Origin: an archaeon
Lineage (GTDB): Archaea > Micrarchaeota > Micrarchaeia > Norongarragalinales > UBA97
Length of the DNA stretch: 59,371 nt
Assembly (NCBI GenBank): GCA_020057405.1
Contig: JAGVFW010000007.1
Coordinates: forward strand, 1-59,371
Direction of reading: 5' to 3'
Positions 41,738 through 58,976 of this stretch are shown piece after piece. The translations under genes and the position numbers were made by a program. The notes below the pieces were generated by a model. That model ran no database searches. It worked only from the letters and a program-made list of their open reading frames with translations, and was not told the origin of the DNA. Position 1 is the first letter of the stretch. Every line of letters starts with the position of its first letter.

Positions 41738-42002
41738 GACGGGAGAGCGCGCTTCGCAGGGCCATCTCGTCAGTGCCCTTGACTAGAGTGCCGGAAACGT
41801 CGACAATGGGCACTGAGGCAGAGCCGGTCTCGCGCAAAAGCTTTTCTGCTGCAAAAGCGCTGACTGTGACGTCGACTTCAGAGAACACCGCACCGGTGGT
41901 CAAGAGCACTTGGCGCACGCGCCGGTAGTTGGGGTCAACTGGCGACCCGTAGAGCGTGATTTCCTTGCCCTTTGAGAGCATGGCGTTTTTTCCGAATTCC
42001 AT
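41721..42002 (-). CDS. Glutaredoxin-like protein lacking CxxC
   Basis: ITLYG.P....R...L....V.F.EVDV...TG..SVP...V.G...G.D. Confidence 0.7.
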   Translation of the reverse strand: MEFGKNAMLSKGKEITLYGSPVDPNYRRVRQVLLTTGAVFSEVDVTVSAFAAEKLLRETGSASVPIVDVSGTLVKGTDEMALRSALSRLKPTI

Positions 42003-42044
42003 GGTTGGTAATTAGGTGGGGCAAGCATTTTAAGGCGAGCCTCA

Positions 42045-43061: not shown

Positions 43062-43395
43062 CGGAATTCTCTTTGTTTACTGCACTTTCTCCACCAGGGC
43101 CGAGGCAGAACGCGTTAGCGCGCTGTTGGTCAAGGAAAACTTGGCAGCCTGCGCGAATGTCATGGCGGAATGCACGAGCTTCTTTAACTGGAAGGGCAAC
43201 TTCCAGACCGGTCGGGAAACACCTGCAGTTCTAAAGACAACGGCTAAGCGCTATCCGGCTTTAGAAAAACGCATCAGGCAACTGCACTCTTACGAAAACC
43301 CGGCGATAGTCGCCCTGCCGGTAACGAAAGGAAGCAAGCCGTACCTGAAGTGGGTTGGCGATTGCTGCAAGCCTGCTGGGGCTAGTAAGCACTAG
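43045..43395 (+). CDS. cutA: Divalent cation tolerance protein CutA
   Basis: LAACAN...S.F.W.G...E...KT...HSYENP.I...YL.W. Confidence 0.92.
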   Translation: MMELSSGILFVYCTFSTRAEAERVSALLVKENLAACANVMAECTSFFNWKGNFQTGRETPAVLKTTAKRYPALEKRIRQLHSYENPAIVALPVTKGSKPYLKWVGDCCKPAGASKH

Positions 43396-43404
43396 CCTCA
43401 TTTT

Positions 43405-44898
43405 TTAGCCAGCGTATCCTGCAACGCACTGGCGGGTGGCTTGGCTCCACTGGCACTGGCCGCCAATGCATCCGCAGCCTGACGCGGTGTAGCACGCGTA
43501 CTCTGCCTTCCACTCGCAAGTGGTTATGATCGAATCCGAATTGCGGCTGCGGCACACTTGCCCGCTGCATCCGTCAACAACGCAGTCTGTGCTTGTGTTG
43601 CAAAGCACTATTGCTGTTGGAATTGGGGTCGGGAAGATGGTTGGGACAGGCGAAGGCTCGACTAACGGCAGCGAAAGAGTGCACGCTCCGGTAGCCTTCA
43701 CCCAATACCCTACGCCGGGCTCGAGTGCTTGCGAAGCAACATACCTGCTTAAGCGCGAGTCGTAGCGCCAAGGGCCGCTGGTTATCCCGCAATTGCGCGA
43801 GATGCGGTAAAAGTCAATTGATTGTGAGGGGGCGCCAATGAGGTTCCATCCTTGCACCAGGCCGACGTGGTACAGCGCCGGCGTGAGCACGCCACTGCCT
43901 TCAAATGTCATTGAGCAGCCGGCGCTCGCCCTGAACCAATAGCCCTTACCACCCGCAAGGCCGCTTGCGTCAACACGCCTGTAGGCGCCGTTGGTGTACT
44001 CCCAGAAAGAAGCGGCTGCGCAAGTGCTGTCCTTGAGCTTGACTGCAGGAAGGAGGGGTACGCTGAAGAGGTTCCAGCCGCTTGCGAAATAGATTGCGTA
44101 TGGATTGTTGCCAGGCGGGGGAGTTGGCTCGCCCGCGCCAAGGATGGCAAACGAGTCAGACGCACTCTCGAGGTGGACCGAGTACTGGCCCGACCTTGCA
44201 GGGTATTGCTCGCCAAGCCTTGTGTAGAGCTGCTGGTTCCAAGTGTGGCTTATGGTCTGGCCGGGCGACAGGTTCTTGACCTGGCACGGCCTGCCGAGGA
44301 TGGGGTTAGTGATGTATAGCTGCATCGAGTTTGAGCGCATGGAATAGAATACGCCGTCGCAATCCATGTACGAGACAACCGTGCTGCCGCCATTGTAGGC
44401 AGTGACCGCTACTTGCTCGCCGAGTGTGTAAAACTCCTCGTCAGCCCAGATGCGGATGCCGTCGCCCGACGAGGCTGGCCTGATTATGAAGTCAACGCGC
44501 ATCCCATTGAAGACGGCGTTGTACGCGCCGGGTGAGGCAAGCAGCCGCGTTCCGACTTCGTCATAGTAATTCTGGTCCCAGGTGGCGCTTGCGCTTTGGC
44601 CTGCCTGCAGTGACTTGGTAGTGCAGGGGTTGGCAAACCACCGGATGCGAGGGTCAGACAAAAGGAGTGCCTGGCCGTTGGGACCGTAGATGTCGGCGAA
44701 TATCTCGCCGTTGGTGCACTCGTTGTAGTCAATTGCGGTTGAACCGCGGTTGGTTAGGGTAAATGTGATGACCTCGCCGGGAGCGTAGGACTGTTCGTCG
44801 GTGCTGAATAGGAATGGCGCTAGTATGTTTGAGTCCGTCAGGGCTCCAGCCAATGCTGCTGCCAAAATAATGCCCAAAACAAAAAGTTTTTCCTTCAT
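43405..44898 (-). CDS. Secreted multi-domain protein with a C-terminal eight-cysteine cluster
   Basis: Signal peptide; two Ig-like repeats (W.Q...G.Y); GWNL repeats; C...GCSGQVC...TTCEW..EY.CY...C.C..G.C.W. Confidence 0.75.
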   Translation of the reverse strand: MKEKLFVLGIILAAALAGALTDSNILAPFLFSTDEQSYAPGEVITFTLTNRGSTAIDYNECTNGEIFADIYGPNGQALLLSDPRIRWFANPCTTKSLQAGQSASATWDQNYYDEVGTRLLASPGAYNAVFNGMRVDFIIRPASSGDGIRIWADEEFYTLGEQVAVTAYNGGSTVVSYMDCDGVFYSMRSNSMQLYITNPILGRPCQVKNLSPGQTISHTWNQQLYTRLGEQYPARSGQYSVHLESASDSFAILGAGEPTPPPGNNPYAIYFASGWNLFSVPLLPAVKLKDSTCAAASFWEYTNGAYRRVDASGLAGGKGYWFRASAGCSMTFEGSGVLTPALYHVGLVQGWNLIGAPSQSIDFYRISRNCGITSGPWRYDSRLSRYVASQALEPGVGYWVKATGACTLSLPLVEPSPVPTIFPTPIPTAIVLCNTSTDCVVDGCSGQVCRSRNSDSIITTCEWKAEYACYTASGCGCIGGQCQWSQATRQCVAGYAG

Positions 44899-44993
44899 TT
44901 GCTATCCCCTTCCACTACAATAGCTTGCGTTGATTTCGCTAATAAACAAAGCCAAATCATTAGCCCCCGCCTTAAGAATCAAAAAAAGTCGAG

Positions 44994-45066
44994 TGGGCCC
45001 GCGGAGAATCGGACTCCGAGTCTTCAGTGTGTGAGACTGACGTCTTAACCATTCGACTACGGGCCC
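44994..45066 (-). tRNA. tRNA-Val(CAC)
   Basis: TCAGT-CTCACAC-ACTGA anticodon arm; perfect acceptor stem; T-loop reads TCCGATT. Confidence 0.88.
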
Positions 45067-45115
45067 GTAGCTAAAATGGGGGGAACAGCGAAAGAATTAG
45101 TGGGCGCGCCAGAAT

Positions 45116-45550
45116 TTATTGGCTTTGCTCTTGGCGCTCGGCTGGAACTTCTTCCTCAACTTGCTCCTGGACTGGCGGTGCCTGGGCTACGGGAACCGGC
45201 TTGCTTGCCGCGGGGAGAGAAGGCCGATAAGCGTCGCGTGGCCGCGGGCCGTGGCCGCTTCCGCGGTTGGCGGCAAAGTTGGTGGGGTTCTCGCGCTCGC
45301 GTTCTCGGCGGCGCTCGTTCTGCTGCTTCTTCTTCTCGAAAATGCGGTTGTGCTTGCCGCAGGAAATGCAATAGCAAACTTCGCGGAAAATCGCGCGGCG
45401 GTAAGTCTCGCGCTCGGCGACCTGGTGGATTTCAAGCGGGTTGGTGAGCATTGGCTTGTCGATGTAGACTGCCTTGTCGCGCCTGACTTGCCGGCCGCAC
45501 TTTTCGCAACGCACAAGGCCTTCCTTGCCGCGTCCGCCTTTCTTTCCCAT
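45116..45550 (-). CDS. rps26e: Ribosomal protein eS26 (S26e) with low-complexity tail
   Basis: GRG...V.C..CGR.V.RDKA...YC.SC..H..I zinc-finger signature. Confidence 0.8.
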   Translation of the reverse strand: MGKKGGRGKEGLVRCEKCGRQVRRDKAVYIDKPMLTNPLEIHQVAERETYRRAIFREVCYCISCGKHNRIFEKKKQQNERRRERERENPTNFAANRGSGHGPRPRDAYRPSLPAASKPVPVAQAPPVQEQVEEEVPAERQEQSQ

Positions 45551-45597
45551 AAAATTAGTTATGTGAGGAAAGCGATTTAAATGCGTCAGCCGCGCGT

Positions 45598-46350
45598 CTA
45601 TCGGCGAGTGCTCTTGGCTTTCTTGCGCAGCCCAAGAATTTGCCCCAGCCTCACCCCGTCAAGGAGTACCGCAGTGGCGTTCTCGACGTCAAAAAGCCGG
45701 TTTTTGAAGAGCGGGCCGAGCAAGTTTTCGGGCTTTTCCGCATTGAATGCGATGCCGCCGGAGAGCTGCGAGTAACACGGGAAGACTATTGCCTTCTGCT
45801 TGCGCGTGCCGAACTTCTTGCTTGCCTTGATGCGGCCCTCAATCCAGGCTTTCTTGAATTCTTTGTGCCCAAGGGCGTCCTCAAAGAGGATGGTCGGGTG
45901 GTTGTTGCCCATGAGAAGAACGTCTGCTGCCAAAAGCGCTTTTGCTGGCCATGCGTGGCCGTGGTGCATGCCGTAAGTTTTGCCTGCGGCAGTGAAAACG
46001 AAGCCCTCGGCGGGCACTAGGGTGATGCCCGGCATGCCGTCGAGGCCAGAATCGTGATTGCCCTTGCAGACCGTGACCGCGTCTACTGCAAGTGCGGCGA
46101 GAAATTCGTGCATCATCTTTCGCTCGCGTTCGTCAAACCCCAGACAATCGTGTTTGAGGTCGCCTAGGACGATTAGCTGCCTGCACTTGAATTGGCGCAA
46201 GAGCCGGTTTAGCCCGTCCGCGACTTTTTTGGGGCGCGGGTAGAGCCGCAGGCCCTTGCGCTGGAGTTCGTATTCGATGCCAAGGTGCACGTCGCTGACA
46301 ACTAGGGCGTTGCCAATGACTGCGGCGGGGACATTCGCGATGAAGCGCAT
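45598..46350 (-). CDS. Calcineurin-like metallophosphoesterase
   Basis: SDVHLG, GDLKH, GNHD, HGH motifs. Confidence 0.88.
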   Translation of the reverse strand: MRFIANVPAAVIGNALVVSDVHLGIEYELQRKGLRLYPRPKKVADGLNRLLRQFKCRQLIVLGDLKHDCLGFDERERKMMHEFLAALAVDAVTVCKGNHDSGLDGMPGITLVPAEGFVFTAAGKTYGMHHGHAWPAKALLAADVLLMGNNHPTILFEDALGHKEFKKAWIEGRIKASKKFGTRKQKAIVFPCYSQLSGGIAFNAEKPENLLGPLFKNRLFDVENATAVLLDGVRLGQILGLRKKAKSTRR

Positions 46351-46377
46351 AAGGGAAAATAAGGAATCGGATGGCTT

Positions 46378-47670
46378 TTACTTCTTCGCCATCGTGTTCT
46401 TGAACTTCTTTGCAGCAGACTCGAGCGCGGTGATTGCGGGCAGTTCCTTGCCTTGCATGAGTTCGAGGAGCGCCCCGCCTGCTAGTGAGATGTGAGAAAT
46501 CTTGTCGGTGGGAATGCCGAACTTCTCAAAAGCCAAGAGCGTGTGGCCGCCGCCGACTAAAGTGTAGGCGCCGCTTCGGGCGACTGCGTCGAAGACTTGC
46601 CGGGTGCCGTTCTCAAACGGCTTTTCCTCGTACTTGCCGCAAGGGCCCTTGACGTAGACGGTCGCGGACTTGAGCACGATTTTTGAGTACTTGTTTGAAG
46701 TTTTGATGCCGATGTCGCCGGACGGAAGGTTGGCGACGACAAGCTGGGTTAGCAGCATTTCCTTGCGGTTACCGTTCTCGTCGGCAACTGCAAAGTCAAA
46801 CGGCGTTTCGATGAACTCGTTGTAGGCGTGGATGAGCTCTCGGACTTGCTGTAGCGCTGCAGTGAATGTCAGCTTGCCGGTAAAGCCCGACTTCTCCAAT
46901 TCCGCTATCTTAGCTTGGGGTAGTTTGTTGCCGCGCGCCATCAGGCACAGCTCGCCGATGATTCCGCTTGTGAGAATCTTGTCGACGATGCCTTTCTTGA
47001 GCGCGTAGTCCATTAGCTTGATGACTTCGTCGGGCTTGGCCCCGCCTAGGAGGTAGACGTTGGGGTGCTTGGCGTTCTCGCGCGCCTTTAGGGCGCCCTC
47101 AAACTCGTGTTCCATCACCGGACCGGCTGCTGAGGGGAGGACGGCGCAGAAGCCAACCATGCTGGCGTGGCCGCGGTGCGCGTTTGAGAACGCGTCGTCG
47201 ACGAAGAGGTCTGCAAGAGGCGCGAGTGCCTTGACTAGCGCGCTTTCTTTCGCGTGCTGTTCGGGCGTCTTCTCGACTGCCTCGTCTGCGAGGTAGCGGA
47301 CGTTGTCAAGGAGCATGATTTCGCCTGCTTTTAGGGCCGCAACAGCCTTCAGCGTCTTTTCGCCGACGACCGCCTTGTCCTCGGCAAAGAGGACTTTCTT
47401 TTCAACTAGCTTTGAGAGAATCGCCGCGTGGGACTTTAGCGAGGTGAAGTCCTTGTCGCCCTTTCGCCCCTGGTGCGCGAGTACTACGAGCTTGCAGCCT
47501 TTTGCCGAAAGCATCTTGACTGTCTCAGCGTGCGCGGTGAAGCGCGGGCCGCTCTGCACTTTCCCGCCTTCGATGGGGCTGTTGAGGTCGACGCGCAAAA
47601 GGACGGTCTTGCCGCGAAGAGTGCCGAAGTCGGCTACGGGAATTATTTGGGATACAGCCATTGGAACCAC
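46378..47670 (-). CDS. pgk: Phosphoglycerate kinase (archaeal type)
   Basis: RVDLNSP, HQGR, DAFSNAHR.HAS, GGAK, GGGH, SLAGGA. Confidence 0.95.
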   Translation of the reverse strand: MVPMAVSQIIPVADFGTLRGKTVLLRVDLNSPIEGGKVQSGPRFTAHAETVKMLSAKGCKLVVLAHQGRKGDKDFTSLKSHAAILSKLVEKKVLFAEDKAVVGEKTLKAVAALKAGEIMLLDNVRYLADEAVEKTPEQHAKESALVKALAPLADLFVDDAFSNAHRGHASMVGFCAVLPSAAGPVMEHEFEGALKARENAKHPNVYLLGGAKPDEVIKLMDYALKKGIVDKILTSGIIGELCLMARGNKLPQAKIAELEKSGFTGKLTFTAALQQVRELIHAYNEFIETPFDFAVADENGNRKEMLLTQLVVANLPSGDIGIKTSNKYSKIVLKSATVYVKGPCGKYEEKPFENGTRQVFDAVARSGAYTLVGGGHTLLAFEKFGIPTDKISHISLAGGALLELMQGKELPAITALESAAKKFKNTMAKK

Positions 47671-47679
47671 TTCCTCTCC

Positions 47680-48777
<1,098 letters not shown>

Positions 48778-50025
48778 CTAAAGCCGCCCGCGCCGCCTCT
48801 CGGCTTCGAGGATGCGCTTTATCGACAGGATGTAGGCGCCCTGGCGCATTGAGTGCTTGCGGCCGTTTGTCGCGTCAAGCACTCCAGTGTAGGCCTTCAC
48901 GATGGTCTCCTCGAGGCGCTTGTTCACTTCGGCCTCGGTCCAGTACTCGCCGTCAAGGTTTTGCAGCCACTCGAAGTAGCTCACGCAAACTCCGCCGCTG
49001 TTGGCAAGAATGTCGGGAATGACGAACACGCCTTTTGCGTGCAAGATGTCATCTCCCTCGGCATCAACGGGGCCGTTTGCGAGCTCAAGCACAATTTTTG
49101 CCTTCACGCGGGACGCGTTGCCTGCGGTAATCTGGTTTTCAAGCGCCGCTGGGACAAGAATGTCAACAGGCAACTCAAGGAGCTCCTCGTTTGACACGCG
49201 CTTGCCTTCAATGCCGTCAAGGCGTTTTTGTTCGTATTGTGCGATGATGCCGGGGATGTCAAGGCCGTTCTCGTCATAGAGGCCGCCCTGAGAGTTGCTA
49301 ACGGCAACGACTTTGGCTCCCCATGAGTGCAGGATGCGGGCGGCGTGCATGCCGGCGTTGCCGAATCCCTGTATGGCTACTGAGGCGCCCTCTAGCTTCA
49401 TGTCAGCGGTCTTTAGGGCCTCGCGGAGAACAAAAGCCCCGCCCATCGAAGTGGAGTACTCGCGCCCTAGGCTGCCGCCGTTGCTGACGGGCTTACCTGT
49501 AATCACGCCTGGCGCGGGTTTGCCAAGCCACTTTTCGTACTCGTCGCGCATCCAGCTCATGACTTCGCCGTTGGTGTTCACATCAGGAGCAGGAATGTCA
49601 ATGCGCTCGCCGACGACTGGGGCGATTGAGCGGAAGTAGGCGCGAGAGAGTCGCTCGAGTTCCGCCTTGCTTAAGGCTTTCGGGTCGACGATGATGCCGC
49701 CCTTGCCCCCGCCAAGCGGGAGGTCAAGGACCGCGCACTTGAATCCCATCAAAAACGCGAGCGTCTTTACTTCCTCGAGGTTCACAGACTGGTGGTAGCG
49801 GATGCCGCCCTTGAATGGCCCGCGGGCGTCGTTTGCTTGCACGCGGTAGCCGAGGAAAATCCGCACTGTTCCGTCATCCATCTTGACAGGCAGGCTGACT
49901 GCTAGGACGCGCTGGGGTGTCGAGAGCAGCTCGAACTCGGCTTTCGAGAGGGCAATCTTGCCTTCCATCTTGCCTAAAAATTTCGCTGCCGTGTCGCAGG
50001 CAAACGAGTAATTGTCTTGGGCCAT
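48778..50025 (-). CDS. gdhA: Glutamate dehydrogenase
   Basis: GPFKGGIRY, GGGKGG, PAPDV, QGFGNAG, ANGP, PDILAN.GGV; probable ATG at 50025. Confidence 0.95.
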   Translation of the reverse strand: MAQDNYSFACDTAAKFLGKMEGKIALSKAEFELLSTPQRVLAVSLPVKMDDGTVRIFLGYRVQANDARGPFKGGIRYHQSVNLEEVKTLAFLMGFKCAVLDLPLGGGKGGIIVDPKALSKAELERLSRAYFRSIAPVVGERIDIPAPDVNTNGEVMSWMRDEYEKWLGKPAPGVITGKPVSNGGSLGREYSTSMGGAFVLREALKTADMKLEGASVAIQGFGNAGMHAARILHSWGAKVVAVSNSQGGLYDENGLDIPGIIAQYEQKRLDGIEGKRVSNEELLELPVDILVPAALENQITAGNASRVKAKIVLELANGPVDAEGDDILHAKGVFVIPDILANSGGVCVSYFEWLQNLDGEYWTEAEVNKRLEETIVKAYTGVLDATNGRKHSMRQGAYILSIKRILEAERRRGRL

Positions 50026-50199
50026 CCTAAACCATTCCTCCAAAAAGCGGTAGTGGGAAGCATTGCTCCCTTCTGCTAGTTTGGCAGACAAGCTTTTTAC
50101 GCCTATTGCTTGCGGCCTTTCCTTTCCACAAGGATTAAAAGCTTGACTATCGTATTTGTGTTGGGCGTCCAACTCGACAACAATTTGAGGTGCTTTTTG

Positions 50200-50751
50200 A
50201 TGGAAACTAATTTGACGAGCGCAAGGAATTTCTTCGCAAGTTTTGCTGTTTTCGCACTCATGGGCTTTTTGCTCGCTGGCTGCCTGAACCAAAGCGGCAG
50301 CGCGACCCCGACGCCTTTTGTCAAGGACGATAGCGGCAACGGGACGGCTCCAACTCCGATTCCCCAAGTAATCGGCACGCCCATCCCGACAGTCACTGAA
50401 ACCAAGACAGGCATCGACAAAATCAATGACACGATTGCCTCAATAGTGCCGGACGGGACATACCAGCAAGACGCTAACTACTCGTACCCCAAGGGCACCA
50501 ACACCGTCCACTTCAGCGTTACCGTCGATGGTGACACCGTTACTAACGTGTCAGTTACTGCAGTTGGCGAGCTCGACCCGATTTCCACCAAGAAAGTCGC
50601 CGACTTTGGCGCGGCCCTCCCAAGCCTCGTCGTGGGCAAGAAAATCAACGAGCTTAACCTGCCTCGAAACGTCGCCGGCAGCTCGCTGACCAACGCGGCG
50701 TTCCAGTCTTATGTGGACGCGCTTGTGGCCAATCATGGCAGTGTAGCTTAA
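50200..50751 (+). CDS. Lipoprotein-like FMN-binding domain protein (flavinylation substrate)
   Basis: LLAGC lipobox-like signal, TP linker, V.GK...EL....VAGSSLT..AF motif; GAGGTG SD. Confidence 0.75.
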   Translation: METNLTSARNFFASFAVFALMGFLLAGCLNQSGSATPTPFVKDDSGNGTAPTPIPQVIGTPIPTVTETKTGIDKINDTIASIVPDGTYQQDANYSYPKGTNTVHFSVTVDGDTVTNVSVTAVGELDPISTKKVADFGAALPSLVVGKKINELNLPRNVAGSSLTNAAFQSYVDALVANHGSVA

Positions 50752-50776
50752 AAACCTTCAAGGGGCTAAAAGCCCA

Positions 50777-51667
50777 GTGATGGAACTGACGGCAAGGTCG
50801 GAACAAGTCCTCGGAACAACTATCGAGGTAAAAGTTCCAGCTGAAGCCGGCTGGTTTCTTCCCGACTGCTTTACCGAGCTCAAGCGCATCGAAGCGGCCT
50901 TTTCCCGATTTCTTGACGACTCGGAACTCTCCAAAATGAACTCGCGGCTGGGCGAGTGGCAGGCCTGTAGCGCCGAAATGGCCTTTCTTCTCTCAAAAGC
51001 GGTTGAAATCAACCGCGCTACTGACGGGAACTTTGACATCACGCTAAAAAATGCGCTTGAAAACCTGGGCTACGACCGGGAATACTCTTTCGTCCCAAAA
51101 GCATCTTCGGGCGCCGACGATAGCCCGCAGTCGCCGCAAGACGTGCAGGTCGACTTGGAGGGCAACCGCGTCAAGCTTCTAAAGCAAGTGGAGTTCGGCG
51201 GCTTTGGCAAAGGCTACGCGCTTGACTGCGTAAGCAATCTTCTTTTGAAAAACGGCGTCGAGCACTACTACATCAACGCGGGCGGCGACATTTACGCGAA
51301 AAAAGGAGCCGGCGGGGACGACTGGGTTGTGCTCCTTGAACACCCTGATGACCGGGAACGCGCCATTGGAACACTCAAGCTCGATGGCCTCTCGATTGCG
51401 GCCTCGGCGCCCAACCGGCGCAAGTGGGCTGGTGACAAGCACCACCTTCTCAACGCAAGGACGCGCCTGCCAGCGCAGGGAGTAAAGGCGATTTTCGTCA
51501 CAGCCAAGGCCGGGCTTGAAGCCGACGCTTATGCAACCGCAATCTTCACCGCAGGTTTTGACGAAGGCATTGCACTCTTTAGAAAGCTGCCTGTCGAAGT
51601 GCTCATGGTCTCAAGCGAAGACAAGATGTTTAAGAGCCCCGGGTTTGCCGGCGAACTGTTTTCCTAA
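50777..51667 (+). CDS. apbE: FAD:protein FMN transferase ApbE
   Basis: GT...FSRF..DSELS..N, FDIT, GG.GKGYA.D, NAGGDI, HHLL..RT, ADAYATA.F. Confidence 0.92.
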   Translation: MMELTARSEQVLGTTIEVKVPAEAGWFLPDCFTELKRIEAAFSRFLDDSELSKMNSRLGEWQACSAEMAFLLSKAVEINRATDGNFDITLKNALENLGYDREYSFVPKASSGADDSPQSPQDVQVDLEGNRVKLLKQVEFGGFGKGYALDCVSNLLLKNGVEHYYINAGGDIYAKKGAGGDDWVVLLEHPDDRERAIGTLKLDGLSIAASAPNRRKWAGDKHHLLNARTRLPAQGVKAIFVTAKAGLEADAYATAIFTAGFDEGIALFRKLPVEVLMVSSEDKMFKSPGFAGELFS

Positions 51668-51675
51668 TCGGCCGC

Positions 51676-51801
51676 TCAATCTTCGGGGTGGACGAAGTGG
51701 AAGGCCACGCCGGCTCCGACCACCAGCAATCCAAGCCAGTCTCCGCTGGCTAGAAACCACAGGCCGCCAAGGCCGATTAGCACCCAGTCAAGGTACATCA
51801 T
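51676..51801 (-). CDS. Putative 41-aa membrane peptide MMYLDWVLIGLGGLWFLASGDWLGLLVVGAGVAFHFVHPED
   Basis: Hand-translated; fills the gap directly downstream of the FTR1 gene; GAGG SD. Confidence 0.5.
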   Translation of the reverse strand: MMYLDWVLIGLGGLWFLASGDWLGLLVVGAGVAFHFVHPED

Positions 51802-51818
51802 GCTCGAGTGTCCTCGGT

Positions 51819-52649
51819 TCATTTCGCGTGCCCCCGTGAAATCTGCCGGTAAATCAAGTAAACTAGCGCCAGGTAGCCAAAATACGCGAGCAACTGCAAA
51901 AGCGACGGGCTGGTGTCGTAACCCACGATGCCCTTTAGCACGCCGCCAACCGCTCCCTTCTCGTGCAACAGCGGGAAAGTGCCGTCGGCGTTCAGAGCCG
52001 GCGTCACGTCGTAAATGTGCTCGATTAGGGGCGGGAGCACGCCAACTTCCTCGAGCTCGTGAACCCCCTGCGAGAGCAGCCCGGCCGCGAGCACCACGAG
52101 GACCGCGCTCGTTGCGAGAAAGAAAGTCTTGAAGTCAAGGCGGATGAAGCTCTTGAACACAAGATAGGCAAGAGCGGATGCGGCTAGCGCTCCCCCAAGC
52201 GCCCACGCTGCGCTGATGGCGCCGGTTGACAATGAAATGCCGTTGAGGAAGAGCACTACCTCGATTCCCTCGCGGAAGACGGCCACGAAGGCGAGTGCTG
52301 CAACGCCCAGCTCTTCCCCGACGTCGATTTTTTGCTTCAAGCCAGCCTCGACCTGCTTGGCCATGTTGCGCTGCCGAAACATCCAGAGGATGAGCCAAGT
52401 GACCAGGATTGCGGCCAAAACCAGCGTGACTCCCTCAAAAAGCGCTTCGTGTTCCTCAAACGTTTCGGCAGCAAAGCCGAACGCCCACGCGACTGCCACG
52501 CTCGCAAGAGCCGCGAGGGCCGAGCCGGCGACAACGAACTTGAGATAACGCGAGTTCCCGCTCTTCTGCAGGTAGGCAGCCATGATGCCTATAACCAAGA
52601 AGATTTCGAAGAACTCTCGGAAAGTTACTATGAATTCAGCTAAGGCCAT
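51819..52649 (-). CDS. FTR1/EfeU iron permease
   Basis: Two RExxE motifs (REFFE, REGIE); GVHELEE. Confidence 0.92.
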   Translation of the reverse strand: MALAEFIVTFREFFEIFLVIGIMAAYLQKSGNSRYLKFVVAGSALAALASVAVAWAFGFAAETFEEHEALFEGVTLVLAAILVTWLILWMFRQRNMAKQVEAGLKQKIDVGEELGVAALAFVAVFREGIEVVLFLNGISLSTGAISAAWALGGALAASALAYLVFKSFIRLDFKTFFLATSAVLVVLAAGLLSQGVHELEEVGVLPPLIEHIYDVTPALNADGTFPLLHEKGAVGGVLKGIVGYDTSPSLLQLLAYFGYLALVYLIYRQISRGHAK

Positions 52650-52889
52650 AAACTCACGACGAAAGTATAACAGAGTAATAACTGCTTATTAAGTGTGGCT
52701 TTCCGTTGGGAAAGTGCTCTCCCCCTGCACTTAGTCCTGGTCTAAGTTCACTCCCCCTGCACTGTCTCCTGGTCTCAGAGCGCAAGCCCGACCGGTTGCT
52801 CTGCGCAGATGTGCTGCATTTGGCATTTTAAAGCTCTCCAGCAATAGGTTCTTGTCGAGAGTTCTTGCGTCAATCAACTTGGTGAAAAA

Positions 52890-53465
52890 ATGCCTGCACG
52901 TTTTTGGGGAAAGCCAGAAAATGCGCCTGCGCATTTGAATTTGTTTCCTCAAAATTCCGCCTGGTTTTCGCACCACCTGCATTCTTTTTCGGAAGCATCA
53001 AGAATACCGCGAGAAGGACTGCTTTCTCAAAAGGAAGCTAAACGACTTGGAATGTCAATTGGTATGACTAATTGGTGGACTGCACATCCGGATAATGATA
53101 ATATACTCCTCTATGAACTCCGCCATCCGTTGGAACGGTTGGAAAGCCAAGATAAGTTTGGAAAGATTCGTGTTCTAATGTGGGGAGACACGCCCACTAC
53201 GCGTGATGAATCTGGCTCATTAGTAAGCAAAACAAGAATTCCTGCAGATTCCGTTTGCGCATTTATTGTTCCAGACAAAGAGAAGCTCAACCCCGATTCA
53301 AACGAACTATCGTTTTTTTACACCGCTCCAAAAAGCAAAGAAAAAGGAGAACTCGCACCTCAAGAAAAAGAAGAGCTCAGGTCCTTTTTGAATGCCGCTA
53401 AAGAACAAGGTATCCCCGTCTACAGCCGCGATGGGGAAAGATTGTGGCCAAAAATCAAAAAGTAG
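52890..53465 (+). CDS. Hypothetical protein, possible ADP-ribosyltransferase-like fold
   Basis: H.......RI.REGLLS and RIP...V..FIV motifs; AT-richer than the flanks. Fold call is weak. Confidence 0.5.
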   Translation: MPARFWGKPENAPAHLNLFPQNSAWFSHHLHSFSEASRIPREGLLSQKEAKRLGMSIGMTNWWTAHPDNDNILLYELRHPLERLESQDKFGKIRVLMWGDTPTTRDESGSLVSKTRIPADSVCAFIVPDKEKLNPDSNELSFFYTAPKSKEKGELAPQEKEELRSFLNAAKEQGIPVYSRDGERLWPKIKK

Positions 53466-53644
53466 CACTTAGAGTCCAGGTCTCCGCTTACTCCCCCTGC
53501 ATAGGTCCACTTCTAGACTACGCCTAAGTGCACTTCTAGGGATTTGAACATCCCATCTTGTTTTCACGCTGGGCTCAAGCTCAAGAACTATTTAAAGACT
53601 GCACCAGCATCGCCTTCAAATACTTACTTTTTCTATTTCGTAAT

Positions 53645-54460
53645 ATGAAGCGTTCGGCAGTAATCACAAACTCTCACGCATTGCCTGTGTTTGAATCATT
53701 GAAAGCCGCTTCCAAGCGCCTTCAGGTTCCAATTTTTCTTGGTGGAGGAAGTTTGCGAGGCTATCATCTGAGAGCATATCACGGCATTACTGCGCCGGAA
53801 CGCGACTATGACGTCTATGTTGCAAGTAATTTGCACGGGATACTGAAACAATTGAAAACCGAGTTTAAGGATGCAAGAATAACTCGTCACAATCTCACGG
53901 ACGGGATGCCTACGGTCGAAGTGGTGCTTCCGAATAACCTCGTCTTTCATTTTGCCACAATCCGTGGAAACGCCAACCTTTACGGGAAAGCTGAGATTGA
54001 GGTCAAAGCCCTGCTGAAAAGCCATGCCGTTACTGGTGCGGACTTCACGGCTAATGCAATGTACTTGGATGTTAACGACCTTAATGCCCCTTCGAGAGTA
54101 TTCGATCCATTTAACGGAAGGGTCGATATCAAGCGAAAAATTATCCGTGTCGTAAGTCCGTCGGTTTTCTCTTCACCGGGTTCTGAACAAGCATTACTCC
54201 GCGCAGCTAGGATGGCCCAGACAATGAAGGGCGAGTTTTCTGACGATACTGCAAGACTGATGAAAGAGAGTGCAGCTAGTGTCACTCGAGTACCGAACTA
54301 TCGGATTAGGCGAGAACTTGAAGCATTACTGAAAGGAGACGACCCGAGGCGGTGGCTTAAAGTGCTTTGGAATTCTGACGTCCTAAAACACCTGTTTCCA
54401 TCAATGACTGCACCTACCCGAGCACAAGTTAGAAGGGAATTGGAAAAACTTCCAAAGTAA
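53645..54460 (+). CDS. Divergent class II (bacterial CCA/poly(A) polymerase-like) nucleotidyltransferase
   Basis: LGGGSLR, DYDV, DFTANAM, DPFNG..DI....IR.V, LLRAAR, RI..EL..LL. Confidence 0.8.
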   Translation: MKRSAVITNSHALPVFESLKAASKRLQVPIFLGGGSLRGYHLRAYHGITAPERDYDVYVASNLHGILKQLKTEFKDARITRHNLTDGMPTVEVVLPNNLVFHFATIRGNANLYGKAEIEVKALLKSHAVTGADFTANAMYLDVNDLNAPSRVFDPFNGRVDIKRKIIRVVSPSVFSSPGSEQALLRAARMAQTMKGEFSDDTARLMKESAASVTRVPNYRIRRELEALLKGDDPRRWLKVLWNSDVLKHLFPSMTAPTRAQVRRELEKLPK

Positions 54461-54714
54461 AATTGAGGCTAGTTATAGATTGCGACTCAATCGTGTCCCG
54501 CAAAGTCCACTTCTAGACCCAGCCTAAGCGCACTCCCCCTGCATCTTGTATCTTTCTAGAGTCTTGACTTTTTCTCCTCGTCAATCCCCTAGAGGCTTCT
54601 CGTCGCTCGCCTAAGAAAGACAGACTCTAGTAAGAAGCTAGAGTTACTCCCCCTAAAGCCCTTAGGCCCGGATACTTATTTCCTTGCAGATTTAAAAGAA
54701 GAGAAATTTTGCCG

Positions 54715-54753
54715 CTAGCAGCAGCAATCGCAGGGTTCGCCGGGTCCAGCCAT
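54715..54753 (-). CDS. Putative 12-aa Cys-rich micropeptide MAGPGEPCDCCC
   Basis: GAGG SD; last ORF of the grx/GDCCVxC run. Confidence 0.45.
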   Translation of the reverse strand: MAGPGEPCDCCC

Positions 54754-54770
54754 CTTCTTCGCCTCTTTTT

Positions 54771-54953
54771 TTACTTGACTGAACTGCTTTCGCACTTGCT
54801 TTTCGAGTAACTGCACACCACGCAGCACGAGGGCGGTTTGGCGGCGATGAGCTTGCCGCAGGAGGTGCATTTCGCGAAGGGCAGGCAGCCGTTCTTGGGC
54901 GTTTGCACTCCGGCTTCCATGCCGCACTCAGGGCAAGTTATTTTGGCCTTCAT
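54771..54953 (-). CDS. GDCCVxC-domain small metal-binding protein
   Basis: ITCPECG...C..F..C..CG......CCVVCSY....C. Confidence 0.8.
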   Translation of the reverse strand: MKAKITCPECGMEAGVQTPKNGCLPFAKCTSCGKLIAAKPPSCCVVCSYSKSKCESSSVK

Positions 54954-54959
54954 TCCAGC

Positions 54960-55199
54960 TTAAAGTCCGAGGGCCTGCTTTATCGAGGGCTTGTCGAAGC
55001 CGACGATTATCTTGCCGTCGATTTCGATGACTGGCACGCCCATCTGGCCGCTGCGCTCTATCATTTCCTCGGCGCGCTCGCGGTCGCTGGCAACGTCAAA
55101 CTCAGAGTACTTCACATTGTTTTCCTTGAAGTACTGCTTTGCCAGCTTGCAGTAGACGCAAGTGGGGGTCGAGTAGATTGTTACTTTGTGGTCAGCCAT
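54960..55199 (-). CDS. Glutaredoxin (NrdH/YruB-like)
   Basis: YSTPTCVYC, SGQMGVPV, GFD. Confidence 0.93.
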   Translation of the reverse strand: MADHKVTIYSTPTCVYCKLAKQYFKENNVKYSEFDVASDRERAEEMIERSGQMGVPVIEIDGKIIVGFDKPSIKQALGL

Positions 55200-55222
55200 G
55201 GTTCTCCAGTCCTCCTAGTAGT

Positions 55223-55930
55223 TCATTTCTTGTTTAATGCGATTGCGTGCGCAGCCCCGTGCTTGCGCTTGCCTTCTGACTCGGTGTCGACATAGCCGTT
55301 GACGATGAGGCGGCCAAGCGGCGTTAGCGTCACGCCAACAGACCCGCCCCTGCGGGTGCAGGTAATGAGGCCAAGCTCGTCGAGGCCGATTTTTTTCTTG
55401 CTGCCGCGCAGGTGGTAGATGACTAGGGGCAGGCTCATGCCCGCCGATGCCGAAAGCGCCTCAAGCGACTTGACTTCCTTCTCTGCAATCAGCTTGAGGA
55501 GATTTAGCTTCTTGTCTGAAATTGCCGAGTAGTAGCTGAACTTCATGATGGGGTAGGCGATGATGCGCTCGTCAAGCACGCCGATTGCCTGGATGCCGTT
55601 GACAAAGGCGGCTGAAAGGGCAATGCAGGAGGTGCGGTAGTCGGCATCGGTGTTGAGGACAATCTTCTTTCCGGGGTTGTCGGACTTGATTTCGGAAACG
55701 GCCCGAAAGACGCCCTCAAAACTCATTTCAGTGAGAGTGCGCGCCTCGACCTTCATCGACTTTGGCAGTTCACGGCTCACGCGCTTGACGTTGGCGTCCT
55801 TCCCCTCGCCATAAGTAAGCATGACGACCTTGTCGGCAGGAAAGAGGTTGAAGCCAAGCGAAAGCACTTCGCCGGCATCGTCGTCCGTCCCAATAATGGC
55901 TACACAAACAGTTTCCACAAACACACCCAA
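55223..55930 (-). CDS. CARF-like Rossmann + winged-HTH transcriptional regulator (Csa3/DUF6293-like)
   Basis: Rossmann N-domain (..AAFVNGI), then wHTH (SL..LS...GMS.PL..YHL...L.ELGLI...LT.LG). Confidence 0.7.
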   Translation of the reverse strand: MGVFVETVCVAIIGTDDDAGEVLSLGFNLFPADKVVMLTYGEGKDANVKRVSRELPKSMKVEARTLTEMSFEGVFRAVSEIKSDNPGKKIVLNTDADYRTSCIALSAAFVNGIQAIGVLDERIIAYPIMKFSYYSAISDKKLNLLKLIAEKEVKSLEALSASAGMSLPLVIYHLRGSKKKIGLDELGLITCTRRGGSVGVTLTPLGRLIVNGYVDTESEGKRKHGAAHAIALNKK

Positions 55931-55943
55931 TAGTTAAATAAAA

Positions 55944-55960
55944 ACTTTAATATTTAAAGT
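55944..55960. promoter_or_regulatory. Palindrome ACTTTAA-TAT-TTAAAGT overlapping the TATA box of the regulator
   Basis: Perfect 7-bp inverted repeat. Confidence 0.5.
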
Positions 55961-56015
55961 ATGGGTTTAACCGGCGTTTTGCCGGCTAAAGGCAGCTTAA
56001 GCTCCGGAAAGCCGC

Positions 56016-56177
56016 TTAGCAGCAGATGCAACCGCACTTGCACTTTGCCGTCGTGATGTCGCAGCAATTGCACGGGCACACGGAATTGGCTGCCTTGGGT
56101 CTTCCGATTGACTTGACAGTTGGCTTTGCAGGCTTGATTGTTTTGACTGACTTTGTAGGATGGATTGTTTTCTTCAT
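56016..56177 (-). CDS. Metallothionein-like 53-aa peptide MKKTIHPTKSVKTIKPAKPTVKSIGRPKAANSVCPCNCCDITTAKCKCGCICC
   Basis: Hand-translated; GGTGA SD; 9 Cys in the last 20 aa; downstream hairpin CCGGC-N5-GCCGG at 55971..55985. Confidence 0.7.
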   Translation of the reverse strand: MKKTIHPTKSVKTIKPAKPTVKSIGRPKAANSVCPCNCCDITTAKCKCGCICC

Positions 56178-56261
56178 AACTCTCACCACGCTAATCCTTT
56201 CGCAGCCCCGAGGTTAAATTGCTTCGCTTAGCCCTACTATGATGCAATTGGCTACTGCAGC

Positions 56262-56357
56262 TTAGCAGCAATAGTGGCCGCACGAGCACGCCTTGCCCTT
56301 CGCCATCTTCGCAGTCTTCTTGGCCGTCTTTGCAATTTTCGTCGTCTTCTTTACCAT
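56262..56357 (-). CDS. 31-aa Lys-rich, Cys-tailed peptide MVKKTTKIAKTAKKTAKMAKGKACSCGHYCC
   Basis: Hand-translated; GGGGTGA SD; TATA-like TTTTAAT upstream. Confidence 0.65.
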   Translation of the reverse strand: MVKKTTKIAKTAKKTAKMAKGKACSCGHYCC

Positions 56358-56473
56358 GCGCTTTCACCCCTCACTAAATGCAAGTTGGTTAAACGCAGAG
56401 GCGATTAAAAAAACTTGAGTTGAAGTCCCGCCGGGCAAAGCCGTAAAAACCTCCGGCCAGCCTATTTTGCATT

Positions 56474-56809
56474 ATGAAGCGGGGCTTCCACTGGTTTACC
56501 TACGCCGAGTGGGCGTTCCTTTTGCTAACCGTGCTTTTAGCGCTCGGGGTGGCTTCGGATGGCTTTAGCGAACGATCAGTACTGGGCACGATTACCAACA
56601 CGTTCTTCGCTTTCCTCGACGTCATTGCCTTAGCCTTAACCGGCGCGGCCGCGGTAGTCGCGCTTGCAAACGGCCTTGGCGTGCTCGCTTTCTTCGCGCT
56701 TTTCGCACTCGGCCTGGTCTTCTTCCGCGAGCGCGTGCTCGAAATTGGCATGATTGCAGTCATCATGCTATTTGCAATAGCAGTTCTCTTTGGCGGCATC
56801 TACGCATAG
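56474..56809 (+). CDS. Small hydrophobic membrane protein
   Basis: 3-4 TM helices. Confidence 0.65.
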   Translation: MKRGFHWFTYAEWAFLLLTVLLALGVASDGFSERSVLGTITNTFFAFLDVIALALTGAAAVVALANGLGVLAFFALFALGLVFFRERVLEIGMIAVIMLFAIAVLFGGIYA

Positions 56810-56872
56810 CTTAAGCTGAGGAAAATAAAAAAAATTGTCCCGGCCAGCCGGGGGTTCTTGAAAAGCAGCTGC

Positions 56873-57580
56873 TTAGGCAGGGAGGGCGAAGTCGGCGTCG
56901 GCAACAGTTGCCGCGTAGGCGGTTGCCTTGGTCTCGGTCTGCACCGTCACGCCCGACTGCGTTGCGCTGTAAGAGACGAAGAGCGGCACGCAATCAGACG
57001 AGATGCAGTAGCGGATGTCGCCTTGCGCGTTGCTTCCCTTGAAGCAGTTGGCAGTCGTGCCTGCGACGCTCATCGTGCCGTCGGCAACATAGGTGTCTGC
57101 GTTTGCCTTAACGTCAGTCTCGACGTTGGTTGCGGGAACCTGCGATGCCTGGCAGTTCCAGCTTCCGCCGGCCTGGAAGCACGAGTTCACGGTCGTTCCA
57201 TCGACAAAAGTGCGGACTTCGACGCCGCTTGATGTGACGTCTGTGCGTATCTTGCCGTCCTTGAAGTACTGCGTCATCTGCACTTGCGAAGATTCGCCAT
57301 TGGTGACAGCTTTGACGGCGTAGTCGACCTTCCATGAGCGGCTGGCTGAAAGGCAAGTCGTGAGGGCTGATGTCTCGACTTTGGGGGTTGGAGTGGCGTC
57401 ATTGACCGCCGGAGTCGGCGTTGCGTCAAGGACTAAGGGCGTCGCAGTTGCAACCGCGACGGGAGTGGGCGTGGCTTCAATCACGGCTGGCGTCGGGGTA
57501 GCCGACGTTGCGCCATTGCCGACACAACCAAGAAGCAGCATCGAAACAGCTAGTAATCCAATAAACTCTTTCACGTACAC
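56873..57580 (-). CDS. Lipoprotein-like secreted protein with ATPTP repeats
   Basis: LLLGC lipobox, TP linker, beta-rich domain ending DADFALP; GAGGTGA SD. Confidence 0.75.
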   Translation of the reverse strand: MYVKEFIGLLAVSMLLLGCVGNGATSATPTPAVIEATPTPVAVATATPLVLDATPTPAVNDATPTPKVETSALTTCLSASRSWKVDYAVKAVTNGESSQVQMTQYFKDGKIRTDVTSSGVEVRTFVDGTTVNSCFQAGGSWNCQASQVPATNVETDVKANADTYVADGTMSVAGTTANCFKGSNAQGDIRYCISSDCVPLFVSYSATQSGVTVQTETKATAYAATVADADFALPA

Positions 57581-57642
57581 TTCACCTCAGGAGTAAGGAA
57601 ACGCAGTAAACACTTTTAAAACCGGACCAAGCGCCCTCCCCC

Positions 57643-57879
57643 CTACCTTTTCTTCGCCTGCTTTACCTGGCTCTTTGCAAACTCGTGCAAAGCGATGCTT
57701 GAGTGGCTGCCCCCTGTGGCCCCCCTGTTGCCCTTGCCTTGAGGCATTGCGCCATACTCTTTTGCAAGCGACAGAATGCCTGCGCGGATGGCCTCTGCCC
57801 GTGTCTTGAAAAAGCCCTGAGCAATCAAACTTTCAAGCGCAGACTCAACAGCACCCTCAAGGCGAACAACAGTCTCCAT
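57643..57879 (-). CDS. CopG/RHH-type DNA-binding protein
   Basis: VVRL......LE.LI..G.F.TR.EAIR.GI..L; AGGTGA SD. Confidence 0.75.
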   Translation of the reverse strand: METVVRLEGAVESALESLIAQGFFKTRAEAIRAGILSLAKEYGAMPQGKGNRGATGGSHSSIALHEFAKSQVKQAKKR

Positions 57880-57989
57880 AAAATCACCTTTTTAGTATTA
57901 AATTGATATGAAAAAGTAGTATTTAAGTCTAACGGCACGACTAACTAGTCTTGACCTACACTAAATTACTATCAAAAACATATCAAAAA

Positions 57990-58976
57990 CTAGACTTTTC
58001 TCTGTTTTTTCCATTCGGAGACCATTTCGTGCGCTGCCTTTTGGAAGGTAGTCTTGGGCACCCAGCCTAAGAGGCGCCTTGCCTTGCTGACATCGTAGTA
58101 CCTATCGTGTGCGATTGTCTCAACTTCCTCGACAACTAGGGGCGGTTTTCTGCCAGTGAGCTTGTGGAACAGGCCGCCTGCCTTGGCAACCGAGTAGGCG
58201 AAGTGCAGGTTGACGTGCTTTGGTGCGAAAGGCACGCCCAGTTCCTTGCAAAGAAGCTTTATTGCTTCTTCCTGCCGGACCGGCTTGTCGCTTGCGATGA
58301 TGAAGTCCTCGTTTGCAATCGGCTTTTCGATTGCGAGGAGGTAGGCGGCAACGACATCGTCAACTGCAACCCAGGAAATGCGGTTCTTGCCGTCCCCGAC
58401 AATAGTCGCCCTGCCTTTTGCGGCTAGTGAAATGAATTTCCTGAAGTTGCTGACATACTCCTTGCCCACCATGACGGTGGGGCGGAGGATGACAAACGGA
58501 ATGCCGCTTGCGGCCACGGTCTCTTCAGCCGCCAGCTTGCTCTCGCCGTAGTAGTTGGTTGGCGTGGGCGGGTGGCCCTCAGTTATTGGCAGCTTGTGCG
58601 GCCGGCGAAAGACGCTGGTGCTTGAGGTGTAGATAAACTTCTTGACTCCGCCCGCCTTTAGGCAAGCCTGGATGAGGTTGACGGTCGCCTCGAAGTTCTC
58701 GCGGAAGAGTTTCTTGCGCGGCGCGAGGTAGTCGACAGTGCCGTAAACGTGGATGACGATGTCAGTGCCCTTGACAAACTGCTTGAGCAGCTCCGCCGGC
58801 GTCTCTCCTTCTTCCGCCAAATCGAGGAAGAGCCGCTTGCTGGCTTTCCTCGGCAGCTTGCTCGCGTCAAGTCTGGGCTGCATCACCAGGCGCACATCAT
58901 AGCCTTTCTTGAGGAGCGCGTCAAGCACGGCGTTGCCCAAGCGTCCGGGGCAACCCGTAAGCAGTACTTTCTTCAC
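57990..58976 (-). CDS. NAD-dependent epimerase/dehydratase (extended SDR)
   Basis: TGCPGRLG, SS..V, YGESK motifs. Confidence 0.9.
   Translation of the reverse strand: MKKVLLTGCPGRLGNAVLDALLKKGYDVRLVMQPRLDASKLPRKASKRLFLDLAEEGETPAELLKQFVKGTDIVIHVYGTVDYLAPRKKLFRENFEATVNLIQACLKAGGVKKFIYTSSTSVFRRPHKLPITEGHPPTPTNYYGESKLAAEETVAASGIPFVILRPTVMVGKEYVSNFRKFISLAAKGRATIVGDGKNRISWVAVDDVVAAYLLAIEKPIANEDFIIASDKPVRQEEAIKLLCKELGVPFAPKHVNLHFAYSVAKAGGLFHKLTGRKPPLVVEEVETIAHDRYYDVSKARRLLGWVPKTTFQKAAHEMVSEWKKQRKV

Follow-up and report, generated by a model that had tools for sequence, protein, structure and literature searches.

The glutaredoxin-like proteins Cp9 and Cp34 of Clostridium pasteurianum, a glutathione-free anaerobe, are reduced by thioredoxin-reductase-like flavoenzymes. 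Fungal Cu-metallothioneins are another described system, which we take to be among the closest to the peptides considered here. Metallothioneins are small cysteine-rich proteins with metal-thiolate clusters, according to PMC7558416, and a second report (bioRxiv 10.1101/834739) presents short polycysteine open reading frames (ORFs) as attenuators in mycobacteria. Here, we describe a cluster of six genes in a 59,371-nucleotide stretch of archaeal DNA (contig JAGVFW010000007.1 of assembly GCA_020057405.1, Micrarchaeota), the whole of which is referred to as the window. Three of the six, named pep31, pep53 and pep12 for the lengths of their products, encode very short cysteine-tailed peptides beside genes for a regulator, a glutaredoxin-like protein and a protein of the GDCCVxC family. 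The comparisons below show that pep53, pep31 and probably pep12 are real unannotated coding genes of a small family restricted to Micrarchaeota, and the peptides stand as the leading candidates to date for metallothionein-like buffers of metals or thiols in archaea.

The genome that holds the window, G000, consists of 1,224,631 bases in 17 contigs and is 90.6 % complete. It was compared with G001, a genome of the same genus, with G020, from another family within the same order, and with two metagenome sequences, L113 and L114, which share 99.98 % identity and represent one population. L113 is ~79 % identical to the window over 1,462 nt. All six ORFs listed in the first-pass annotation of the window were found, co-oriented on the minus strand and arranged head to tail from 54715 to 56357, as follows.

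56262-56357, minus strand: pep31, a basic peptide of 31 aa that ends CSCGHYCC-stop, MVKKTTKIAKTAKKTAKMAKGKACSCGHYCC
56016-56177, minus strand: pep53, a peptide of 53 aa with a Lys/Thr-rich N-half, MKKTIHPTKSVKTIKPAKPTVKSIGRPKAANSVCPCNCCDITTAKCKCGCICC
55223-55930, minus strand: Csa3-like regulator of 235 aa, with an N-terminal CARF-like Rossmann domain and a C-terminal winged helix
54960-55199, minus strand: YruB-family glutaredoxin-like protein of 79 aa with a CVYC active site (TIGR02196, PF00462)
54771-54953, minus strand: GDCCVxC-family protein of 60 aa with 9 conserved Cys, zinc-ribbon-like (NF041374)
54715-54753, minus strand: pep12 micro-ORF, MAGPGEPCDCCC-stop, with the Shine-Dalgarno (SD) sequence GAGGCGA and 5 nt before the ATG

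Each of the three larger genes falls into a known kind, and the peptides are a new, very narrowly spread family. The gene order peptide, regulator, glutaredoxin-like protein, GDCCVxC protein is common to three species (G000, G001 and L113). SD-like sites lie 5-8 nt upstream of the ATG in all three small ORFs; the SD reported earlier for each was confirmed, and the sequences are GGGGTGA for pep31 (6 nt upstream of the ATG), GGTGA for pep53 (5 nt upstream) and GAGG for pep12.

Orthologues of pep53 were found by position at L113:2149-2298 (49 aa, 84 % identity over 38 aa, MKKKTAKATKPVKPATKSIGRPKAPNSVCACNCCDITTAKCRCGCICCS) and at L003:1239-1382 (47 aa, the G001 peptide MKKTAKKATAKKSTKVSKKMDDCGCNCCTPMKGKPGKGCDCMCCCGC), and the G001 ORF lies between the divergent membrane-protein gene and the regulator gene, as pep53 does in G000. 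The SD site and ATG of pep53 are kept in G000, G001 and L113. In the final 38 codons, comparison of G000 with L113 shows 7 synonymous and 7 non-synonymous changes, corresponding to a pS of 0.275 and a pN of 0.079. The orthologues have a CxCNCC core in common, and their MKKT start shows synonymous changes. We conclude with good confidence from these comparisons that pep53 is a real protein-coding gene. The claim that the micro-ORFs are conserved coding sequences is thus borne out by the orthologues, by the retained SD sites and start codons, and by a pN lower than pS.

No counterpart of pep31 was found in L113 or G001. It aligns with pep53 and with the G001 peptide, and a 32-aa peptide of G020, MVVKKTVKKKASGSEMKKSGKAKDCNCNCGCC, is a near-twin of it in length and layout. 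As pep31 has the N-terminus of the family, an SD site and this near-twin, we read it as a lineage-specific paralogue, specific to G000. A further peptide, from the genome G147, has 41 aa and a tail, TTDAKGKCKCDCGCC, that is close to the tail of pep53, ITTAKCKCGCICC. The layout of the peptides is a disordered basic N-half rich in Lys, Thr and Ala, followed by a C-terminal cluster of CxC and CC motifs at the stop codon or a few residues from it. There are 9 Cys within the last 20 residues of pep53, 4 within the last 8 of pep31 and 11 within the last 25 of the G001 peptide, and the only aromatic residue is a single Tyr in pep31. A CC pair directly before the stop codon had been proposed as the hallmark of these ORFs. 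However, orthologues end in CCS and in CCCGC, and the conserved feature is therefore the terminal Cys cluster rather than CC-stop.

In G000, 79 of the 51,103 stop-to-stop frames of at least 10 aa end in CC. For 1,643 bases, the expectation is 0.106, and the Poisson probability of at least three is 1.8e-4, a post hoc value for one of ~745 such windows in the genome. Seven of the 79 are outside any frame of at least 120 aa, and three of these seven, including pep31 and pep53, have a start codon and an SD-like site. The cluster of CC-ending micro-ORFs is a correct observation and no composition artefact, as pep31 and pep53 make up two of the three intergenic SD-bearing frames of this type genome-wide. 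The filtered set does not include pep12, whose 70-aa stop-to-stop frame overlaps the GDCCVxC gene.

The third intergenic SD-bearing frame is a fourth basic CC-ending micro-ORF, MPEKKSRKKHGCC, found outside the window on another G000 contig (C11:43249-43290, also L085:1276-1317) and located 5 nt downstream of GGAGGTG. Upstream of it are two small membrane-protein genes, one with a CC pair in a membrane helix, and downstream are a strong hairpin and a pyridine-nucleotide-disulfide oxidoreductase gene.

The peptides had been described as unannotated, and none of 10 start variants was found in a collection of 15 billion proteins. Using profile A2, 6 of 401 genomes of the class were matched at E<=0.05; four of these are real, and in the other 2 the matches are weak (E 0.03-0.04) and lie inside frames of 130 and 192 aa. 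Profile A1, applied to the 68 genomes of the order, gave clear matches only in G000 and G001, and G020 was matched at E 0.056. Pattern searches were also made. The CxCxCxCC-stop pattern matched 44 of the 401 genomes, and the reversed-pattern control also matched many; among the loci checked (30 listed and 9 further regions), 17 frames ended at a true stop and 2, those of G020 and G147, had a basic N-half. With KCKCxCxCC-stop, 26 stretches were retrieved from species-representative genomes and only the G147 contig was plausible, and CxCNCC was found at 12 places in 11 of the 401 genomes, with only the G000 place real. A word-index homologue search with pep53 returned no candidate and a search of the ESM Atlas no usable match to the peptides. 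A three-peptide profile had 0 matches at E<=0.001 among 1.84 billion representative proteins, which is weak evidence of absence for so short and low-complexity a profile. In total, the family was found in only five Micrarchaeota populations.

For pep12, an orthologous mini-ORF is present at L113:3597-3626 and encodes MNGPGGCCC (ATG AAC GGA CCA GGC GGA TGC TGC TGC TAG). Its SD site, GAGGTGA, is 5 nt from the ATG, the same spacing as for GAGGCGA in G000, and the two ORFs are set apart by an indel of 9 nt that keeps the frame and by a synonymous change (CCA/CCC) at a Pro codon. Among the 68 genomes of the order, the pep12 pattern was found only in G000, and the reversed control gave 0 matches. 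We consider pep12 to be probably, if not firmly, a translated gene. That there is no gene here, and that pep12 is instead a chance-open part of a hairpin or terminator at the 3′ end of the operon, is possible but rather doubtful. The TGC repeats form a small 3′ hairpin in the centroid folds of both G000 and L113, pairing with downstream GCGGC in G000 and GCAGC in L113, and a T-run comes after it; (TGC)3 is a simple repeat, and the mini-ORF is not present in G001, L078 or L115. However, both species retain the SD-like site with its spacing, the ATG and the GGACCNGGC codons, the indel leaves the frame intact, and the folds of the region are no better than those of shuffled sequences (z +0.3 and +0.7).

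The first-pass annotation had also offered an alternative origin for this 12-mer, namely that it is a frameshifted tail of the GDCCVxC gene, given an A-run that spans the stop codon. The run does exist, the stop codon TAA being followed by five more A. However, TAA opens the run, so that a change in run length cannot remove the stop. Furthermore, in G001, P0007 and L078 the GDCCVxC protein stops at the same VK or KK, and L113 has both an 82-aa GDCCVxC protein with an extension of its own (ending TCEACQ) and the separate mini-ORF. This origin is rejected on the position of the stop, the ends of the orthologues and the layout in L113.

As to function, our preferred reading, which we put forward tentatively and as slightly short of probable, is that the pep31/pep53/pep12 family consists of metallothionein-like buffers of soft metals or thiols, encoded beside a thiol/metal operon. 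The cysteine tails would form metal-thiolate clusters that buffer thiophilic metals, such as Cu(I), Zn, Cd or Hg(II), and perhaps oxidants as well, and the basic half would offset the negative charge of the cluster or tether the peptide to nucleic acid or membrane. The GDCCVxC protein, whose bacterial relatives follow merT-merP, would be a cytosolic soft-metal acceptor, and the glutaredoxin-like protein would keep the cysteines of the peptides and of the GDCCVxC protein reduced or exchange disulfides with them. The regulator would tune expression on sensing a small ligand. In composition the peptides are like metallothioneins, with many Cys arranged in CxC and CC motifs and scarcely any aromatic residue, and this Cys density and near-absence of aromatics fit the metallothionein definition given in PMC7558416.

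The GDCCVxC identity proposed for the 60-aa protein stood, as it scores 54.3 bits with NF041374 (cut-off 40); its motif is PSCCVVC. In an alignment of 29 sequences, eight Cys are invariant and one is nearly invariant. The AF2 model (pLDDT 78.7) has weak fold matches to zinc fingers and zinc ribbons; compared with the PDB, it gave 0 matches at E<=0.001, and the best VIA-align Z was 3.8, to zinc fingers. The public entry for this gene (P0014) is a 49-aa product that starts at Met12 and so misses the invariant N-terminal CPxC, which places the true start at the ATG at 54953. The closest relatives (L113:3329-3577, P0003 and P0005) carry a C-terminal extension of 15-23 residues ending CEACE or CEACQ, which is not in G000, G001 or most other members.

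While tblastn of the archaeal GDCCVxC protein against plasmids found no match, a distant relative, P0029, matches 348 plasmid records. Five of these loci were inspected, and in four of them the bacterial GDCCVxC gene is directly after merT and/or merP; in the fifth, it is beside thioredoxin and CcdA genes. It is this occurrence of GDCCVxC relatives in mer-type operons that makes a thiophilic-metal or thiol-buffer reading reasonable. The name GDCCVxC was not found in the literature searched.

The glutaredoxin of the first-pass annotation was also recovered, with TIGR02196 at 96.6 bits (cut-off 88.55) and PF00462 at 73.2 bits, and both Cys of CVYC are invariant in 8 orthologues. It is the sole PF00462 match in the G000 genome. 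The glutathione-synthesis genes gshA, gshB and GCS2 were not found in this 90.6 %-complete genome, and one thioredoxin-reductase-like gene (308 bits; C6:124580-125476) is present elsewhere in it. In 7 of 9 distinct Micrarchaeota loci, the glutaredoxin gene is directly upstream of the GDCCVxC gene, and in G029 and G011 a gene for a thioredoxin-reductase-like flavoprotein comes next. Given that the search revealed no glutathione pathway, the reductant of the glutaredoxin-like protein is probably the thioredoxin-reductase-like flavoprotein of G000 itself. The full order at the two loci in which such a gene adjoins the pair (L017 in G029 and L019 in G011) is a radical-SAM activase-like gene, a 145-aa gene, the glutaredoxin gene, the GDCCVxC gene and the flavoprotein gene, and the GDCCVxC proteins encoded there have a Cys-free C-terminal extension.

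For the regulator, the earlier description as CARF-like agrees with its predicted fold, which is closest to Csa3 (CARF plus winged helix). The best Foldseek matches of the AF2 model (pLDDT 79.6) are the Csa3 structures 6wxq_A (E 1.7e-8, 224 columns) and 2wte, and CARF ring nucleases, Csm6 and Can2 follow; the TM-scores are only 0.37-0.50. The HFX_2341_N model gives 18.9 bits with the regulator (cut-off 30) and matches 10 of 13 family members at E<=0.01 (best E 3.2e-7). No association with CRISPR-Cas or cyclic-oligoadenylate signalling was found, in that Cas1 was not found in the 90.6 %-complete G000 genome (Cas10 was not searched). Counting G000, homologues of the regulator are present in 13 of 41 related genomes, and at 4 of the 11 other loci they adjoin genes for thiol-redox or metal functions, namely ZIP and DsbA-like genes; superoxide dismutase, thioredoxin and ArsR genes; a glutaredoxin gene; and a thioredoxin gene. 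A cytochrome b5 gene is the neighbour at a fifth locus. The homologue at L012 (G029 contig C58) is beside genes for superoxide dismutase, a TrmO-like protein, a Cys-rich Thioredoxin_3 protein, ArsR and a small membrane protein with an LCCLGP motif, a neighbourhood that looks like a metal or mercury-type cluster. The synteny check near the regulator that had been proposed found a peptide ORF beside it in G000, G001 and L113. One further feature separates pep53 from the regulator gene.

55951..55970, minus strand: promoter-like element, TTAAACCC..CTTTAAATA, between pep53 and the regulator gene

This element is kept in G000, G001 and L113, ~20 nt upstream of the start codon of the regulator, and may represent a BRE (B recognition element)/TATA promoter that gives a leaderless operon mRNA. 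If the operon has its own promoter, the peptide genes would be separate transcription units. A perfect inverted repeat, ACTTTAA-ATA-TTAAAGT, covers the TATA-like box of this promoter at 55944-55960. L113 keeps part of this repeat and G001 little of it, and it could be an operator.

Several observations weigh against the metallothionein-like reading. The family is narrowly spread, with members in one metagenome population and in 4 of the 401 genomes sampled from the class. The peptide genes of G020 and G147 are found among unrelated neighbours; a GDCCVxC gene was not found in either genome, nor the regulator in G147. The linkage of peptide and operon is therefore confined to one genus-level clade of three species, and the six genes, which had been presented as one system, do not form an obligate one, as the peptide occurs alone in G020 and G147. 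At the sequence level, the peptides belong to no metallothionein family: none of the six examined had a Pfam match at E<=10, metallothionein families included, and PDB sequences likewise gave 0 at E<=10. Unlike metallothioneins, the peptides carry a long polybasic N-half. Genes for MerR, MerT, MerP, MerA or a metal transporter are absent from the cluster, and MerA was not found in the G000 genome, where the best match to the MerA model (342 bits, cut-off 454) is lipoamide-dehydrogenase-like and without the C-terminal Cys pair. The conservation of pep12 could be partly at the RNA level, because its TGC repeats form a 3′ hairpin in both species. Finally, metal binding and the roles of the GDCCVxC and glutaredoxin-like proteins are steps that we infer, each of them biochemical.

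A redox function is an unlikely alternative. The peptides would then stand in for glutathione as genetically encoded thiols of low molecular weight, or as sacrificial disulfide buffers, with peroxides or electrophiles as their oxidants, and the YruB-type glutaredoxin-like protein would, with the same limited likelihood, re-reduce them with electrons from a thioredoxin-reductase-like enzyme. The lack of detectable glutathione-synthesis genes in G000, the position of its single glutaredoxin-fold gene within the operon and the thioredoxin-reductase-like flavoprotein genes that adjoin the glutaredoxin-GDCCVxC pair in G029 and G011 are all in line with this. NCBIfam, moreover, names GDCCVxC as a (seleno)protein family, a naming that usually goes with redox-active cysteines. 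However, dense CxCxCxCC tails are typical of metal-thiolate binding and not of redox couples, the bacterial GDCCVxC genes are in metal (mer) operons, and the peptides occur without the operon in G020 and G147.

An extended form of the buffer proposal, which we hold to be improbable, has the Cys-tailed peptides as free-standing gene-encoded thiol carriers that replace glutathione or phytochelatin, with the GDCCVxC protein as acceptor, recycling by the glutaredoxin-like protein and non-CRISPR CARF control. By analogy with mercuric reductase, the peptides (GPG...CCC of 9-12 residues and basic CxCxCxCC) might even hand metal to the GDCCVxC protein as the C-terminal Cys pair of that enzyme does, but in trans, and to this we give just as little credence.

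The basic halves raise another explanation of low probability, that these are protamine-like nucleic-acid- or ribosome-binding peptides, with DNA or RNA bound by the Lys-rich half and with the Cys cluster holding one structural zinc, as in a zinc knuckle, or forming disulfide cross-links. The N-halves do resemble basic tails rich in Lys, Ala and Thr, and the lone genes of G020 and G147 are beside housekeeping genes (such as those for a KH-domain protein and a phosphoribosyltransferase). However, no nucleic-acid-binding family was matched, there are more Cys than one zinc site needs, and members of the G000 clade have these genes next to thiol and metal genes.

Attenuation is likewise improbable, and we disfavour it. 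Here, the ribosome would pause at Cys codons when charged tRNA-Cys is scarce and thereby change expression of the neighbouring thiol genes, the product itself being irrelevant. Short ORFs immediately upstream of a thiol operon do end in runs of Cys codons, and bioRxiv 10.1101/834739 provides a mycobacterial polycysteine precedent. Against this, the N-half is conserved as protein, with synonymous changes and pN lower than pS; the stretch between pep53 and the regulator gene contains the promoter-like element, and the regulator gene has no SD site that could be sequestered; a convergent gene is downstream of the G020 member; and pep12 comes at the end of the operon instead of its start. Neither a leaderless first ORF nor a linking RNA structure was found, as the ORFs have SD sites and no conserved RNA structure extends from the Cys tract to the regulator start (covariation term +3.67). 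A search of 54300-56700 against Rfam gave 0 matches at E<=1.

Least probable, and also disfavoured, is a ribosomally synthesised and post-translationally modified peptide with a basic leader and a Cys-rich core, modified by a maturase and exported, the leader-core precursor of the first-pass annotation: despite the two-part layout, the conserved, divergent gene for a small membrane protein and a weak AgrD-family match of pep31 (15 bits, below the cut-off of 19), there is no maturase within ~10 kb (the genes from 41015 to 58976 matched no radical-SAM, YcaO or lanthipeptide family and no other family of maturases), and the neighbours differ in G020 and G147.

Two further features flank the cluster.

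56474..56809, plus strand: divergent gene for a 111-aa membrane protein, syntenic with the peptide gene
54690..54714, minus strand: T-rich run 3′ of pep12, cggcaaaatttctcttcttttaaat

The 111-aa membrane protein has no family matches, and its position and orientation are kept in G001 (41 % identity) and L113 (64 % identity). The T-rich run is likely the 3′ end of the operon, and a similar one follows the mini-ORF in L113. Between pep12 and the FTR1 permease gene of G000 are two genes, 53558-54460 and 52890-53465, that look inserted because they are not in L113. One encodes a 300-aa protein with a PolyA_pol head and RNA-binding domains, of the bacterial-type CCA-adding/poly(A) polymerase class, and the other is a 191-aa ORF. 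In two relatives (L113:3725-3904 and L115:1052-1115), a 59-aa protein with four CxxC pairs and a weak Zn_Ribbon_TF match (E 2.4e-4) is encoded 3′ of the operon; tblastn found no counterpart of it in G000.

The finding is real and its spread small, and the function given for the peptides is a proposed one. A conserved ribosomal family of Cys-cluster peptides in Micrarchaeota would be the first archaeal metallothionein candidate, because the phrases 'archaeal metallothionein(s)', 'metallothioneins in archaea' and 'metallothionein from archaea' were not found in the literature searched. At 31-53 residues, the peptides can be synthesised and would serve as a probe of the ways in which DPANN archaea with reduced genomes and no glutathione deal with thiophilic metals and thiol stress. 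The locus also shows that whole families of genes of 9-53 codons escape gene callers. In addition, it links the unstudied GDCCVxC family, common in bacterial mer-type operons, to a glutaredoxin partner and adds a CRISPR-independent Csa3-like regulator that is often beside redox and metal genes.

Compared with the leaderless polycysteine ORFs of mycobacteria (bioRxiv 10.1101/834739), the small genes are alike in being short, unannotated ORFs with Cys runs beside thiol-related genes, and differ in having SD sites, an N-half under purifying selection, an intervening promoter-like element and members without a downstream gene. The regulator shares the two-domain architecture of Csa3 (2wte, 6wxq), with nearly full-length fold matches, but has only 16-18 % sequence identity to it, and its gene neighbours are redox and metal genes. 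Like the Cp9/Cp34 system, the locus has a CxxC glutaredoxin fold, here of the YruB type, the search of the genome having turned up no gene for glutathione synthesis, and there is a thioredoxin-reductase-like neighbour in G029 and G011; no peroxiredoxin partner is in the cluster, and the conserved partner is instead the GDCCVxC protein. That 60-aa protein reaches the NF041374 cut-off and shares its conserved cysteines with the bacterial proteins of merR-merT-merP-GDCCVxC modules, whereas its partners here are a glutaredoxin-like protein, a CARF regulator and Cys-tailed peptides. Finally, in relation to metallothioneins (bacterial SmtA/BmtA and mycobacterial MymT), the peptides are like them in being small, rich in Cys in CxC and CC motifs, poor in aromatic residues and free of a predicted metal-free fold, and differ from them in that their host is an archaeon.

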